NCBI GenBank assembly: GCA_945910225.1
Contig: CAMDYG010000009.1
Span: forward strand, 35 to 64,034
DNA length: 64,000 nucleotides
Source of the DNA: an uncultured Eubacterium sp.
GTDB lineage: Bacteria > Bacillota > Clostridia > Lachnospirales > Lachnospiraceae
Reading direction: 5' to 3'
Made by a program: the position numbers and the translations under genes. The notes beneath the pieces were generated by a model that ran no database searches, was not told where the DNA came from, and saw only the letters and a list, made by a program, of their open reading frames with translations. Shown here one piece after another: positions 1,901 through 18,061 of this stretch; positions within the stretch are counted from its first letter, which is position 1; every line of letters begins with the position of its first letter.

Positions 1901-3571
1901 ATGAAGACAGATATTGAAATTGCACAGGAAGCGGTAATGGAGCCAATTAAGAATGTTGCAGCCCAATGTGGCATAAGTGAAGATGATCTTGAGTTATATG
2001 GAAAGTATAAGGCTAAGATATCTGACGAGTACATCAATAGCATCAAGAATAATGAAGATGGTAAGTTAATTCTTGTTACAGCGATTAACCCAACTCCGGC
2101 AGGAGAGGGAAAGACAACAATTACTGTAGGACTTGGAGAAGCATTTGGCAAGCTTGGTAAGAATGCAGTTATAGCACTTCGTGAGCCATCCCTTGGACCA
2201 TGTTTCGGAATCAAAGGCGGAGCAGCTGGTGGTGGATATGCACAGGTAGTTCCTATGGAAGAACTGAATCTGCATTTTACAGGTGATTTCCATGCAATTA
2301 CATCAGCTAATAACTTATGTGCTGCACTGCTTGATAATCATATACAGCAGGGAAATGAACTTGGAATTGATCCAAGATGCGTTGCATGGAAGAGATGTAT
2401 GGATATGAATGACCGTGTCCTTAGAAATATTGTTGTAGGTCTTGGTTCTAAGGTTGATGGAACAGTTAGAGAGGATCATTTTGTTATCACAGTTGCTTCA
2501 GAGATTATGGCTGTATTATGTCTTGCAACAGACATGAAGGATTTAAAGGAAAGACTTGGCAAGATGGTAGTTGCTTATAATTATCAGGGACAACCTGTTA
2601 CAGCAGCAGATATCAAGGCAGTTGGCTCAATGGCAGCATTGTTAAAGGACGCATTAAAGCCTAATTTAATCCAGACACTTGAGCATACACCAGCATTAGT
2701 ACATGGTGGACCATTTGCCAATATTGCACATGGTTGTAACTCAGTAAGAGCAACTAAGACAGCGCTTAAGATGGCAGATTATGTTATCACAGAGGCTGGA
2801 TTTGGTGCAGATTTAGGCGCAGAAAAATTCTTCGACATTAAGTGCCGCAAGTCAGGCTTAAAGCCAGATGCAGTTGTACTGGTAGCAACAGCAAGAGCAC
2901 TTAAGTACAATGGCGGAGTAGCTAAGACAGAATTATCAGCAGAGAATCTTGATGCATTAAAGAAAGGTATCGTAAACCTTGAAAAGCATATAGAGAATCT
3001 TCAGAAATATGGAGTACCTGTAGTTGTTACGCTTAATGCATTTGTATCAGATACACAGGCAGAATTAGATTATATACAGAAGTTCTGTGAAGATAAAGGC
3101 TGTGAGTTTGCCCTTGCCAAAGTATGGGAAAAGGGTGGAGAAGGTGGAATTGAACTTGCAGAGAAAGTACTTAAGACACTTGAGACAAAGAAGAGCAATT
3201 TCCACTATCTGTATGATACAGACCAGCCGGTTAAAGCAAAGATTGAGACTATTGCCAAAGAAATATATGGCGCTGGAAGCGTTAATTATTCAGCAGCAGC
3301 TAACAAGCAGATTGCACAGCTTGAACAGTTAGGATTTGGTAATCTTCCAATCTGCATGGCTAAGACACAGTATTCACTTTCAGACGATCCAACATTACTT
3401 GGTCGTCCAGAAGGATTTGAAATGAATGTAAGAGAAGCATATGTATCTGCAGGTGCCGGCTTCATAGTAGTACTTACAGGTTCAGTAATGACAATGCCAG
3501 GACTTTCAAGGTCACCAGCAGCATATAATATTGATGTTAATGATGATGGAGTAATAACTGGATTATTCTAG
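1901..3571 (+). CDS. fhs: Formate--tetrahydrofolate ligase
   Basis: 556 aa. [46 protein letters not shown] and a C-terminal GLF. Confidence 0.98.
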
Positions 3572-13068: not shown

Positions 13069-13132
13069 TTGACATATACCCTATATGGGTATATTATACA
13101 TCATGCAAGTGAATATACCCCACTAGGGTATA
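13069..13132 (+). promoter_or_regulatory. cop operon promoter with two CsoR-type operators
   Basis: TTGACA-17-TATTAT. Palindromes ATATACCCTATATGGGTATAT (13074-13094, between -35 and -10) and TATACCCCACTAGGGTATA (13114-13132) match the CsoR TACC-n-GGTA box. Confidence 0.85.
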
Positions 13133-13241
13133 CATCATGCGCTGCATACATTACATATATTACAGCTATAACAGATAAATATAAAAGAGTATTTATCAGG
13201 CACCAATATAATAATCAGACGAAGAAGAGAAAGGAAGACTA

Positions 13242-13541
13242 ATGGAAAAGGAATGTTGTTGTCATAAGACAAAAGAACGTGATGCCAGAGAATATAAAGA
13301 CCTCTGTAACAGACTCAGCAGAATTGAAGGGCAGATAAGAGGAATTAAGGGAATGGTCGAGAAAGATGCATATTGTATCGACATTCTTAATCAGGTGTCG
13401 GCAGCCCAGTCTGCGCTTAATAGTTTTACGAAGGTGCTCCTGGATAATCACATCAAGAGTTGTGTGGTTCAGGATATTAAAGAAGGCAAGGATGATACAG
13501 TGGAAGAACTTGTTAAGACAATAGGCAAATTCATGCGATAA
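13242..13541 (+). CDS. csoR: Copper-sensing repressor CsoR
   Basis: RLSRIEGQIRGIKGMVEKDAYCIDILNQ..A...H...C, with the Cys/His/Cys Cu(I) ligands. Confidence 0.93.
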   Translation: MEKECCCHKTKERDAREYKDLCNRLSRIEGQIRGIKGMVEKDAYCIDILNQVSAAQSALNSFTKVLLDNHIKSCVVQDIKEGKDDTVEELVKTIGKFMR

Positions 13542-13556
13542 GAATTATAAAAGGAG

Positions 13557-13943
13557 ATGTTAAATATGGGAACAGCTATAATAATCGGCATATTAGCCAT
13601 AATAGTAGTAATTGCAGTAATAAGCAGTGTTAAGCATATGAAAGGTGAAGACGGATGCTGTGGCGGCGGTGGAGATACTGTTGCAGAGGAGAAGAAGGTT
13701 CTTGATAATCCTGTAATTGCTGTCAAAACTGTAAATATTGAAGGTATGCATTGTGAGAACTGCAAGAACATTATTGAGAGATCTGTTAATAAGATTGATG
13801 GTGCTTCATGCCAGGTTAATCTTAAGAAGAAGCAGGCAACTATTGAAGTTGACAGAGAAATCGATGACGCTGATATAAGAATTGCAATAGAGAGACTTGA
13901 TTTCAAAGTTACAGGAATAACAGCTAACCATAAGGAGGGCTAG
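13557..13943 (+). CDS. Membrane-anchored heavy-metal-associated (CopZ-like) protein
   Basis: N-terminal TM helix, GCCGGG linker and HMA domain GMHCENC. Confidence 0.85.
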   Translation: MLNMGTAIIIGILAIIVVIAVISSVKHMKGEDGCCGGGGDTVAEEKKVLDNPVIAVKTVNIEGMHCENCKNIIERSVNKIDGASCQVNLKKKQATIEVDREIDDADIRIAIERLDFKVTGITANHKEG

Positions 13944-13949
13944 TGTGGT

Positions 13950-16493
13950 ATGGAACAGTACAATGTTACAGGAATGAGCTGTGCAGCTTGTCAGGCAAGA
14001 GTTGAGAAGGCTGTCAGCAAAGTACCTGGAGTGGAAAGCTGTTCAGTAAGTCTTCTTACTAATTCTATGGGGGTTGAAGGAACTGCAGCACCTGATGCAG
14101 TCATTAAAGCTGTGGAAGCTGCAGGATATGGCGCATCAGAAAAGGGAACTAAGAACAGCAGTCCTTCAATGCAGGAGCAGGAAGACGCACTGGCAGATAA
14201 GACAACCCCGGTTTTAAAGAAGAGATTAATAGCTTCATTAGTATTTCTGGTTGTGCTTATGTATTTCAGCATGGGACATATGATGTGGGGCTGGTCGCTT
14301 CCATCAGTGCTTGAAGGCAATCATGTGGCCATGGGTTTAATACAAATGCTGCTTACAATAATGATAATGGTTATTAACCAGCATTTCTTCATAAGTGGAT
14401 TTAAGGGTCTGTTACATCGTTCACCTAATATGGATACACTTGTTGCGCTTGGTTCAGGGGCTGCATTTGTGTGGAGCACATATGCACTTTTTGCCATGAC
14501 AGACTGTCAGGTAAGAGGCGATATGGCAGGCGTAATGCACTACATGGACGAATTCTATTTTGAATCGGCAGCCATGATTCTTACACTTATTACAGTAGGA
14601 AAAATGCTTGAAGCCCGCTCAAAGGGAAAGACAACCGATGCATTAAAGAGTCTTATGAAGCTTGCTGCCAAGACAGCAGTACTTTATGTTGACGGACAGG
14701 AAAAGGAAGTTCCTGTTGAACAGGTTATGACAGGCGACATATTTGTTGTAAGACCGGGGGAAAATATACCTGTAGATGGTGTCATCATTGAAGGTAACAC
14801 AGCAGTTAATGAATCAGCGCTTACAGGTGAGAGCATTCCTGTTGATAAACAGGAGGGAGATCCGGTAAGTGCAGCTACACTTAATACATCTGGATTTATA
14901 AAATGCAGGGCTACAAGAGTAGGAGAAGACACAACACTTTCCAAGATAATACAGATGGTAAGTGATGCGGCTGCGACTAAGGCGCCAATTGCAAAAATAG
15001 CAGATAAAGTTTCAGGGGTATTTGTACCTGCAGTTATTACAATAGCAGTTATCACAATAATAGTATGGCTGTTATGTGGTAAAGACCTGGGATTCGCACT
15101 TGCAAGAGGAATATCGGTGCTTGTAATAAGCTGTCCTTGTGCATTGGGGCTTGCAACTCCTGTTGCAATTATGGTTGGTAACGGAGTTGGCGCTAAGAAC
15201 GGAATTATGTTCAAGACGGCAGTTTCTCTGGAACAGACAGGTAAGATGCAGATAGTTGCACTTGATAAGACTGGTACAATCACAGAGGGTGAACCAAAGG
15301 TTACAGACATTGTGACCGGTGATGGAATTTCACAGAAAGAACTAGTTGCCATAGCATATGGTCTTGAAAAGAAAAGTGAGCACCCACTTGCAAAGGCTGT
15401 TGTTAATTATGTAGAAGAGAGTGCGGATAAGAACACATTTACAGAAGAAGTAACTGACTTTAAGGCGGTTTCCGGTAACGGACTTAAAGGAAAGCTTGAT
15501 ACCAATGTGGTGGCAGGTGGTAATCTTAAGTTCATATCAGAATACTGCAATGTCTCTGATGATTTAAGAAATAAGGCTGACGATTTGTCATCAGAAGGAA
15601 AGACACCACTTTTCTTTGCGAGAGATAACGAGCTTCTTGGAATAATAGCTGTTGCTGATACGATTAAGAAAGACAGCCCACAGGCTATCAAAGAACTCCA
15701 GAATATGGGAATCAAGGTTGTAATGATTACCGGAGATAATGAAAGAAGTGCGAAGGCAATCGGAAAGCTTGCCGGAGTTGATGAAGTTATTGCAGGTGTT
15801 CTTCCGGAAGGAAAAGAAAAAGAGATTGCAAGACTTAAGGAGCAGGGAAGTGTTATAATGGTCGGTGATGGAATTAATGATGCTCCGGCACTTACAAGAG
15901 CTGATATCGGTATTGCAATCGGAGCTGGCACAGATGTTGCCATAGATGCAGCAGATATAGTTCTTATGAAGAGCAGATTATCAGACGTGCCTGCTGCCAT
16001 AAGACTTTCAAAGAGAACACTTACCAATATACATGAGAATCTGTTCTGGGCATTCTTCTATAACTGTATAGGAATCCCGCTTGCAGCAGGTGTGTGGATA
16101 CCATTATTTGGATGGACACTCAATCCGATGTTTGGTGCAGCAGCTATGAGTTTATCAAGCTTCTGCGTAGTAACGAATGCATTAAGACTTAATCTCGTAA
16201 AGATATATGATACAGGAAAAAACCATATTTACAAGAAAAAGTTAGGCAAAATAAAGAATAAAACGACAAAAGGAGACAAAACTATGACAAAGACTATGAA
16301 TATTGAGGGTATGATGTGCGGACACTGTGAGGCTACAGTTAAGAAGGCACTTGAGGCTGTTGACGGAGTTACAGAGGCAGTTGTAAGCCATGAGAACGGA
16401 ACAGCGGTTGTGACACTTTCTAAGGAAGTTGATAATGATGTGTTAAAGAAGACTGTTGAAGATAAGGATTACAAGGTAACAGCAGTTAAATAA
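13950..16493 (+). CDS. copA: Copper-translocating P1B-type ATPase with N- and C-terminal HMA domains
   Basis: GMSCAAC, TGES, CPC, DKTGT, SEHPL, GDGINDAPAL, ENLFWAFFYN and a C-terminal GMMCGHC. Confidence 0.96.
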   Translation: MEQYNVTGMSCAACQARVEKAVSKVPGVESCSVSLLTNSMGVEGTAAPDAVIKAVEAAGYGASEKGTKNSSPSMQEQEDALADKTTPVLKKRLIASLVFLVVLMYFSMGHMMWGWSLPSVLEGNHVAMGLIQMLLTIMIMVINQHFFISGFKGLLHRSPNMDTLVALGSGAAFVWSTYALFAMTDCQVRGDMAGVMHYMDEFYFESAAMILTLITVGKMLEARSKGKTTDALKSLMKLAAKTAVLYVDGQEKEVPVEQVMTGDIFVVRPGENIPVDGVIIEGNTAVNESALTGESIPVDKQEGDPVSAATLNTSGFIKCRATRVGEDTTLSKIIQMVSDAAATKAPIAKIADKVSGVFVPAVITIAVITIIVWLLCGKDLGFALARGISVLVISCPCALGLATPVAIMVGNGVGAKNGIMFKTAVSLEQTGKMQIVALDKTGTITEGEPKVTDIVTGDGISQKELVAIAYGLEKKSEHPLAKAVVNYVEESADKNTFTEEVTDFKAVSGNGLKGKLDTNVVAGGNLKFISEYCNVSDDLRNKADDLSSEGKTPLFFARDNELLGIIAVADTIKKDSPQAIKELQNMGIKVVMITGDNERSAKAIGKLAGVDEVIAGVLPEGKEKEIARLKEQGSVIMVGDGINDAPALTRADIGIAIGAGTDVAIDAADIVLMKSRLSDVPAAIRLSKRTLTNIHENLFWAFFYNCIGIPLAAGVWIPLFGWTLNPMFGAAAMSLSSFCVVTNALRLNLVKIYDTGKNHIYKKKLGKIKNKTTKGDKTMTKTMNIEGMMCGHCEATVKKALEAVDGVTEAVVSHENGTAVVTLSKEVDNDVLKKTVEDKDYKVTAVK

Positions 16494-16591
16494 TAATAAA
16501 GCGGTTAAATAAAGAGTTTGTATTGTGAATGTCATTTGAAAATGTTAAAATCATCAGATAGAAGGTATTACTTAATGTATGGAGGAAGAAG

Positions 16592-18061
16592 ATGAACATA
16601 ACATTTTTGGTGCTGTATATAATTGCAGCAGTGGTTCTTGCATATGTTCTGGTAAGAACATATCTTGAAAAAGACAGAATGAGCAAGTTCGTTGCTGTCC
16701 CAGTGATTCTGGCTTTAGTATGTGTACTTGGATATTCTGTGAACTTTATGACAGATGACTATAAGAAAATGTCCTGTGCTACCAGCATTATGATGGTAGC
16801 TCAGGATTTTGCGCTTGTTGCGGTACTTGTGTATACGAGGGAATTTACGAGAATATGCAATAAAGCAACAAAGATAATGGCAGGAGTGTCATCGGTTCTT
16901 GCGATTGCAGATTCGGTGATTTTTATAATTAATATTTTTGATGAGATAGCGTTAAAGTACAGCCTTAACAAATGTAATGGTGGTTACGTTCTTGGATATG
17001 AAGGAGAAGTCTGGTTTGCTGTTCATGCGATTATCAACCTGATAATAGTTGCAATGGTAATAGGACTGCTTGTTGTAAAATGTATGAGAATTCCCGGAGC
17101 ATATTGGGGAAGATATACATTTATGGGGATAGGATTATTTATAATACTTATATTTAAGTTCATATTTATAGCGAAAATGATAGATCTCAGAGTGGATATA
17201 TCAATATTATTATATGCATTTCTGGGAGTTCTTATATATTGGAATACATTCTGGTATTCTAAAAAGACAATGCTTAATGTTACACATGAGATGATAATAG
17301 ACCATATGCAGGTACCTGTTATATTATTTGATTACGAAGGGGTTGTAGCAGATTTTAATGTGCCAATGCATAATATATTTGATGATCTTATGTATGATAA
17401 CAGGGAACAGACATATTCATGGTTTATAGAGAATAAGCATGTTCCGGTAGAAGAAGGAAAAGACACATTTGAGTGGAATCTCAAAGAACACAGCTACGAC
17501 TGCAGGATTGTCAATCTGTCAGATAATAAGGGAAGACTATTAGGGAAAATCATAGTAATGCAGGATGTCAGCGAGCTTAAGAAAGCATACAGGGAATTGC
17601 AGGACATGGTTGTATACGATCCGCTTACGGGTGTGTTCAGCAAGCTCAGTTATCTTGATAACTGTAAGAATTATGATGATTTTAAGGGACCGGTAAGTGT
17701 TGCAGTGTGCAATGTTAACAGCCTTAATGATATTAACATAAGATTTGGACAGAAGATTGGAGATTCTGTAATGATAAATGTTGCTGATGTTCTTAAGTCC
17801 GAGTTAAAGAATAATGCATACATTGCAAGGCTAAACGGAAGTGATTTTGCAATAGTTCTTAAGAATTATACTAAAGAAAAGTCAGAAACATTAATAGCGG
17901 GAGTGAAAGATAAAATAACCAGACAGTGTTCAACTAAAGACTATAAGGTTACTGTAGAATATGGAATATCAGTGCGTGATAATAATAACAAGTGGATGAT
18001 GGATGTCACTAATAAGGCAGCAGCAATTATGAAAGAAAAGAAGGCATCAAGAACACATTAA
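16592..18061 (+). CDS. 7TM (HisKA_7TM-like) sensor with a PAS-like region and a degenerate GGDEF domain
   Basis: About seven TM helices, then YDPLTG, IN.RFG..IGD and ARLNGSDFAI in place of RxGGDEF. Confidence 0.8.
   Translation: MNITFLVLYIIAAVVLAYVLVRTYLEKDRMSKFVAVPVILALVCVLGYSVNFMTDDYKKMSCATSIMMVAQDFALVAVLVYTREFTRICNKATKIMAGVSSVLAIADSVIFIINIFDEIALKYSLNKCNGGYVLGYEGEVWFAVHAIINLIIVAMVIGLLVVKCMRIPGAYWGRYTFMGIGLFIILIFKFIFIAKMIDLRVDISILLYAFLGVLIYWNTFWYSKKTMLNVTHEMIIDHMQVPVILFDYEGVVADFNVPMHNIFDDLMYDNREQTYSWFIENKHVPVEEGKDTFEWNLKEHSYDCRIVNLSDNKGRLLGKIIVMQDVSELKKAYRELQDMVVYDPLTGVFSKLSYLDNCKNYDDFKGPVSVAVCNVNSLNDINIRFGQKIGDSVMINVADVLKSELKNNAYIARLNGSDFAIVLKNYTKEKSETLIAGVKDKITRQCSTKDYKVTVEYGISVRDNNNKWMMDVTNKAAAIMKEKKASRTH

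Follow-up and report, generated by a model that had tools for sequence, protein, structure and literature searches.

In Escherichia coli, a single copA gene yields more than a copper pump. According to Meydan (2017) and Drees (2017), as cited in PMC7558416 and 10.1101/2022.11.09.515450, a CopZ-like product of its N-terminal domain, CopA(Z), is made by −1 frameshifting; ribosomes slip on C CCA AAG and reach a stop in the −1 frame immediately afterward. Elsewhere, as in copZA of Bacillus subtilis and copYZAB of Enterococcus hirae, a small cytosolic HMA protein with an MxCxxC motif is encoded in a copper-regulated operon together with copA. A third arrangement is found in CopA pumps of the Archaeoglobus fulgidus type, which are P1B-1 ATPases in which an N-terminal HMA domain is joined by another that follows the last membrane helix. 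The C-terminal domain has been described as tethered, and we found no report of its separate translation. Here, we examine a copA gene that resembles each of these systems in part. It lies on a 64,000-nucleotide stretch, hereafter the window, from an uncultured Eubacterium sp. of the Lachnospiraceae (GenBank assembly GCA_945910225.1, contig CAMDYG010000009.1). A first-pass annotation of the window had proposed that an internal ribosome binding site and in-frame ATG near the 3' end of this gene could release a stand-alone CopZ, and it had drawn a parallel with frameshifting in E. coli copA that is accurate according to the literature cited above.

We think it likely that the internal Shine-Dalgarno (SD) sequence and ATG of copA constitute a functional internal start, and, judging from comparative data, one copA gene very probably makes both a pump and a free copper chaperone. 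Under this model, ribosomes that start at position 13950 would produce the 847-amino-acid pump, with an HMA domain tethered at its cytoplasmic C terminus. Other ribosomes would load on an unstructured, A-rich linker at the internal SD (16269 to 16275) and start at the ATG at 16284, thereby producing the same HMA domain as a free, CopZ-like protein of 69 amino acids and roughly 7.5 kDa. An operon mRNA under CsoR control would carry the information for both products, such that copper would induce them jointly. The model supposes that initiation takes place at the internal site in vivo, that the free product acts as a soluble Cu(I) chaperone otherwise absent from most of these loci, and that competition between elongating copA ribosomes and internal loading determines the pump-to-chaperone ratio. 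A full-text literature search returned no description of internal initiation at the C-terminal HMA domain of CopA.

The internal SD-ATG pair and the nested reading frame

In CopA from the window, an N-terminal HMA domain (residues 4 to 60) is followed by the ATPase core and then by a linker that leads to a C-terminal HMA domain. The linker occupies 30 codons after the last membrane helix (16194 to 16283, forward strand) and contains 56% A, compared with 32% for the copA gene, while lysine accounts for 10 of its 30 residues. The first-pass annotation had called it A-rich and Lys-rich, which is borne out, and had likened it to former intergenic DNA. Such an origin is not required, given that ongoing selection for an unstructured initiation region and a Lys-rich cytoplasmic tail fits the A-richness just as well.

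Toward the end of the linker lies the internal SD sequence AAAGGAG (16269 to 16275, forward strand), which the copA frame reads through the codons for Lys-Gly-Asp. Its AAGGAG core (16270 to 16275) is separated by the 8-nucleotide (nt) spacer ACAAAACT from an in-frame ATG (16284 to 16286, forward strand), which is codon 779 of the 847-codon gene, as (16284 − 13950)/3 = 778. Both the sequence and the open reading frame (ORF) confirm the positions and the frame first proposed for this pair. The nested ORF that begins here (16284 to 16493, forward strand) has its frame and stop codon in common with copA and encodes a 69-amino-acid CopZ-like HMA protein. Three consecutive in-frame TAA codons (16491 to 16499) terminate copA and the nested ORF.

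The 69-amino-acid sequence, MTKTMNIEGMMCGHCE...VTAVK, matches the Pfam HMA model over its whole length (positions 1 to 62 of 62; E = 2.5e-15), in agreement with the earlier claim that the ATG opens a complete HMA protein. Its metal-binding loop, GMMCGHC, is of the GMxCxxC type and falls at residues 787 to 793 of CopA. The nearest relatives of the domain in structure databases are the metal-binding domains of ATP7B and the CopZ structure 6ff2. Moreover, the internal Met of CopA occupies the position at which stand-alone Firmicutes CopZ proteins start; the difference from a stand-alone copZ is that the window sequence is nested in frame in copA, with no stop between.

The RNA surrounding the internal start (−30 to +30) has a minimum free energy of 0 kcal/mol. 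Within the 35 large ORFs of the window, there are 460 internal in-frame ATGs, and this is the only one with AAGGAG placed 4 to 11 nt upstream; any 5-mer SD core is found at 4 of the 460. The SD-ATG motif is rare in the window and unremarkable alone, and its significance comes from comparative data.

Conservation of the proposed internal start across species

A protein search with the last 147 residues of CopA as the query retrieved 4,653 homologs, of which 120 were listed, at 52 to 97% identity. The Met that opens the C-terminal HMA domain is invariant in these (120 of the 120 homologs listed), even as the linker before it differs in length and sequence, and the residues preceding this Met are rich in K, E, and G. 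For DNA comparisons, 80 loci were taken from one genome per species (GTDB species representatives), mostly Lachnospiraceae and other Clostridia with 59 to 74% identity over the C-terminal region; together with the window, they make up 81 sequences. Cultured bacteria with this arrangement include Roseburia faecis JCM 17581 (L024), Enterocloster citroniae DSM 19261 (L032), Fusicatenibacter saccharivorans (L036), and Mediterraneibacter glycyrrhizinilyticus (L027).

The internal ATG is present in all 81 sequences. The linker, which ranges from 25 to 60 codons and is unalignable, contains no stop in any of the 80 species, and the frame of copA runs uninterrupted from NALRLN through the C-terminal HMA domain to the stop, both in the window and in each of the 80 species. 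With the ATG as the anchor for all 81 sequences, the information content is close to zero between −45 and −14 and peaks at GGAGGA (−13 to −8, with G at −12 in 90%) and at the ATG itself. An SD core is found 4 to 11 nt upstream in 80 of 81 sequences, and in 64 of 81 there is a GGAGG or AGGAG 5-mer. The spacing between the GGAGGA-type motif and the ATG is 6 to 8 nt. As a control, we took the 2355 in-frame ATGs located elsewhere inside these copA genes, for which the corresponding values are 7% for any core and 1% for a 5-mer. Predicted duplexes with the anti-SD sequence average −10.4 kcal/mol at the conserved site, versus −3.3 kcal/mol at the other internal ATGs (p = 2e-51), only 0.3% of which reach the median energy of the conserved site. 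The fold energy of the −30 to +30 region likewise has a mean of −1.9 kcal/mol, versus −13.2 kcal/mol at other internal ATGs (p = 1e-50), and the GC content around the internal start is 33%, versus 51% for the gene.

In two Fusicatenibacter genomes (L031 and L036) and in L029, the SD-ATG pair is located 4 to 6 codons further upstream with its 8-nt spacing kept, and the homologous usual position is without an SD. The free product of these three species would thus have a short N-terminal extension.

As a check on its idea, the first-pass annotation had asked whether the nucleotides of the SD and ATG are conserved in excess. The outcome is strongly positive, as evidenced by the count of 80 of 81 given above, by synonymous recoding, and by the choice of Glu codons. 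In the recoding null, the eight codons upstream of the ATG were replaced by synonymous codons according to each gene's own codon usage in 1000 trials. GGAG-containing sites numbered 59 in the observed sequences, versus 26.9±4.0 after recoding (maximum, 38). Glu codons at adjacent positions show opposite preferences: at codon −4, GAG is used 63 times and GAA 4 times, while at codon −3, GAA is used 40 times and GAG 4 times. The background is GAG 2095 and GAA 2237 in the rest of copA and GAG 19 and GAA 88 (82% GAA) in the rest of the linker. This asymmetry is seen in every tercile of third-position GC content (GC3), with GAG in 23 of 23 cases against a background of 38% GAG and, for Glu at −3, GAA in 15 of 16 cases against a background of 38% GAA. 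Codon −5 has G as its third base in 60 of 81 sequences while specifying six different amino acids (K, Q, E, M, L, and A). Also, the SD can be read in another frame, as in AAA GGA GGA (L056), GAA GGA GAA (L005 and L008), and AAA GGA GAC (the window). Because of the recoding null, the Glu asymmetry, the variable residue at −5, and the second frame, the signal is not due to the encoded peptide.

Additional information comes from HMA domains that lack the Met. In more distant CopA proteins with 2 to 4 tandem C-terminal HMA domains, analyzed at the protein level (P0258, P0140, and P0131), only the last domain has the Met, and K/E-rich residues precede it, which suggests that the same internal start may occur there. 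An HMA protein encoded next to copA in the window (13557 to 13943) has Ala at the position of the internal Met. As the inner domains of the tandem arrays and this neighbor are without a Met at that position, the HMA fold does not need it. By these comparisons, purifying selection evidently acts at the nucleotide level in at least 80 species on the SD and its distance from the ATG, on the ATG itself, and on the weak mRNA structure around them.

Two lines of reasoning bear on what is being selected. That the linker evolves freely but keeps its frame in all 80 species argues for selection of the tethered form. Retention of the SD, its spacing, the ATG, and an open structure in the nucleotides themselves argues that separate initiation is selected too. 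Both products, the pump with its tethered domain and the free chaperone, therefore seem to be under selection, and the outcome is likely to be two products instead of a disguised two-gene operon. The proposal of a stand-alone CopZ arising by internal initiation is thereby supported by comparative data; the term "release" fits less well, as the product would be synthesized separately and not cut off from the pump.

Alternative explanations and contrary observations

The same conservation could be sought in the protein instead of the mRNA. A K-E-E-x-x-M peptide might cap the tethered domain structurally or help it to dock, with the SD-like DNA as a by-product, and it is true that KEE, QEE, and MEE are the commonest peptides, followed by two residues and then Met. 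We regard this as very improbable: the residue at −5 varies while its third base is mostly G, other species translate these nucleotides as G-G, E-G-E, or K-G-D, neighboring Glu codons show extreme preferences in opposite directions, a null that preserves the amino acids produces less than half of the observed motifs, and the Met is absent from the inner HMA domains of tandem arrays. A role in elongation is about equally hard to credit. The SD-like site would in this case slow copA ribosomes so that the last membrane helices can insert, with no initiation, and its location about 30 codons past the last membrane helix, a distance close to that spanned by the exit tunnel, would suit such a pause. 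Nevertheless, a pause has no need for an ATG fixed 6 to 8 nt downstream, and here the ATG never varies and shifts together with the SD; also, the distance from helix to motif varies from about 20 to 55 codons. SD-induced pausing is itself disputed as a profiling artifact.

History offers another explanation, in which an ancestral copA-copZ pair was fused by loss of a stop and the ribosome binding site and start of the old copZ persist unused. The fusion-like layout, the Met placed where stand-alone CopZ proteins begin, the resemblance of the linker to intergenic DNA, and the existence of rare split alleles are all in keeping with such a relic. Yet the linker has diverged past alignment, while the SD, spacing, and ATG are fixed in 80 of 81 sequences, synonymous SD positions are under a constraint that goes against codon bias, local as well as genomic, and the SD-ATG pair has shifted jointly in three species. 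An unused site would not outlast divergence on this scale, and we consider a relic improbable. Somewhat less improbable, though still unlikely, is a separate transcript, whereby a promoter within the 3' portion of copA would give rise to a short mRNA for the HMA protein. This is a variant of internal initiation and not an exclusive alternative to it, and such a transcript is possible in addition. The title of Drees (2017) indicates that E. coli CopA(Z) also uses differential transcript formation, and the window has a weak promoter-like match, TTAAGA-18-TATGAT, at 16182 to 16211 (9 of 12 positions). Promoter-like matches occur at the level of chance, however (11 found versus 10.4 expected), the 45 nt examined show no conserved position upstream of −14, and one metatranscriptome contig, from a relative, spans the junction (X33, 15960 to 16494), indicating transcription across it. 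The candidate promoter at 16182 to 16211 was accordingly rejected as a chance-level match.

A functional internal start, the explanation that we prefer, can also be viewed in light of other chaperone genes and of alleles in which copA is interrupted. A separate small HMA gene was found within 5 kb of copA in only 1 of 80 loci, and no soluble HMA gene is present in the 64-kb window. A membrane-anchored HMA gene precedes copA in only 2 of 80 loci (L006 and L073), and in L017 a comparable HMA ORF of 119 amino acids lies downstream of copA. In four assemblies from close relatives of the window strain (L089 to L092), the linker reads AAAAATAAAAAAAAAAACGAC instead of AAAAATAAAAATAAAACGAC about 35 nt before the internal ATG, which amounts to an A11 run and a +1 frameshift. 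Since copA ends out of frame as a result, the HMA domain of these alleles is reachable only from the internal start. Transcriptional slippage could also occur on an A run of this length. L098, from another species, is a 66-kb contig with no Ns in which an in-frame TAG near the beginning of the linker closes copA, around position 3374; the former linker then stays open for 42 codons in the same frame, up to AAAGGAG-N6-ATG and an intact 70-amino-acid HMA ORF. We regard L098 as a candidate in which the fusion has split naturally. In L098, as in L089 to L092, neither the SD nor the nested ORF is damaged; these two split forms look genuine and lend weak support to independent expression of the nested ORF.

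Several considerations weigh against a functional internal start that yields a chaperone. Support for the 69-amino-acid product and for initiating ribosomes is evolutionary, not biochemical, and we infer the step from conserved initiation signals to a free chaperone serving the pump. Counts from 80 species are not fully independent owing to shared ancestry. The metatranscriptome contigs on the locus are the sole RNA data, and they are uninformative on 5' ends and translation. The 69-amino-acid sequence misses the CopZ-specific NCBIfam cutoffs, with 57.4 bits for CopZ_AFE_1862 (cutoff, 85), 53.5 for chaper_CopZ_Bs (cutoff, 91), and 41.5 for chaper_CopZ_Eh (cutoff, 95); by its sequence, then, the predicted product is a complete HMA domain with a CopZ-like layout that stands outside the named CopZ subfamilies. 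Of 51 conserved Glu, Lys, or Gln columns, a few reach 86 to 89% use of one codon, so one-codon bias in a single column is not unique; the adjacent, opposite, and GC-independent pattern is. Searches for other chaperone genes covered 5 kb around copA, and a soluble copZ could be encoded elsewhere in these genomes. The split alleles could be pseudogenes or assembly errors. Finally, public protein sets contain hundreds of 69- to 70-amino-acid entries that start at this Met (P0269 to P0386; loci L081 to L103), which, apart from L089 to L092 and L098, we rejected as proof of split genes, as they stem mostly from scaffold N-gaps, low-coverage indels, and contig ends in the A-rich linker. They show only that gene finders accept the internal ATG as a start.

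The copper operon and its relation to known systems

The copA gene belongs to an operon whose near-consensus promoter, TTGACA-17-TATTAT, lies at 13069 to 13097 on the forward strand (11 of 12 positions in a promoter scan). Inside the promoter spacer, at 13074 to 13094, inverted repeat I3 forms a CsoR-type operator palindrome, ATATACCC-N5-GGGTATAT. A second operator-like palindrome, ATATACCCCACTAGGGTATAC (13113 to 13133, forward strand), has its box 20 nt downstream of the first and is paired with the first box by inverted repeat I1. The two palindromes look like CsoR operators that would govern the whole operon. The first gene (13242 to 13541, forward strand) encodes a 99-amino-acid copper-sensing repressor of the CsoR family (Pfam Trns_repr_metal, E = 3.2e-31), for which the top NCBIfam match is RicR, with a score under the RicR cutoff. 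The second gene (13557 to 13943, forward strand) encodes the 128-amino-acid HMA protein mentioned above (Pfam HMA, E = 6e-12). An N-terminal transmembrane helix is followed in this protein by a CCGGGG Cys/Gly stretch and then by the HMA domain; a weak match to FeoB_associated (FeoB-associated Cys-rich membrane protein) was obtained as well. By its layout, this would be a membrane-anchored, chaperone-like protein.

The third gene is copA itself (13950 to 16493, forward strand), an ORF for an 847-amino-acid P1B-1 Cu(I)-exporting ATPase with Pfam matches to E1-E2_ATPase, Hydrolase, and two HMA domains. P1B-1 motifs are found at TGES 292, CPC 395, DKTGT 439, SEHP 476, and GDGINDAP 639. CopA exceeds the curated cutoffs of TIGR01511 (588.7 bits; cutoff, 397) and TIGR01525 (631.1 bits; cutoff, 346), and it scores below the cutoff of 1316 for the E. 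coli-specific equivalog PRK10671. The gene 3' of copA (16592 to 18061) encodes a GGDEF diguanylate cyclase with a 7TM sensor and has no evident link to copper; the same neighbor follows copA in the closely related contigs L081 to L094. Near-identical sequence to that of the window is present in many pig-gut metagenomes, and the organism is a pig-gut bacterium.

If the internal start is used, thousands of genomes of Lachnospiraceae and related bacteria encode an unannotated CopZ. In genomes with this arrangement, the pump is present, and there is usually no chaperone gene nearby. Because copper is directed at gut bacteria both by hosts and through pig feed, how this operon is expressed matters for gut ecology. 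The locus is also an unusually clean case for comparative genomics as a method, in that a hypervariable linker exposes a conserved SD-ATG pair. A note of caution applies to databases, as assemblies that break in the A-rich linker create artefactual proteins of 69 to 70 amino acids. We further put forward, as a tentative idea that goes well beyond the internal start itself, that the "missing" chaperone of gut Clostridia may reside inside copA. The tethered and free HMA domains might both be needed, with the free copy loading or regulating the pump by Cu(I)-bridged pairing with the tethered one and their ratio set by competition between elongating ribosomes and 30S subunits; the route to the E. 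coli solution would then have been independent and mechanistically different.

Comparison with other families helps to place the proposed mechanism. Cas11 within cas8 of type I CRISPR systems and endolysins such as CTP1L likewise have a conserved internal in-frame SD and start at a domain boundary, and one ORF with a common stop yields a free C-terminal domain beside the full-length protein. These belong to other families with other functions, and there experiments have demonstrated the short product, which assembles with its long counterpart, whereas for copA of the window the product and any complex are predictions. Relative to CopA of the A. fulgidus type, which has the same domain layout, what is new is the conserved bacterial SD-ATG pair.

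In outcome, the window's copA has a counterpart in CopA(Z) of E. coli. In both cases, one gene encodes a P1B ATPase and an HMA chaperone of about 70 amino acids that is identical to a metal-binding domain of the pump and co-regulated with it; this second product remains a prediction in the window. An E. coli-type frameshift signal after the first HMA domain was sought, and CCCAAAG is absent from copA of the window. A slippery heptamer, T TTA AAG, does occur just past the N-terminal HMA domain (14213 to 14219), with a −1-frame stop 31 codons away, and only about 10 of 79 homologs scanned have slippery heptamers near that place. With no conservation and no immediate stop, the heptamer at 14213 is probably there by chance, and an E. 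coli-type frameshift was rejected. Unlike CopA(Z), which derives from the N-terminal domain, the C-terminal domain of the window's CopA would arise by fresh initiation. If this is true, copA of these Clostridia would be a second case in which a single gene supplies pump and chaperone, reached by C-terminal initiation in place of N-terminal frameshifting, and a second case would argue that the coupling of the two products is itself advantageous.

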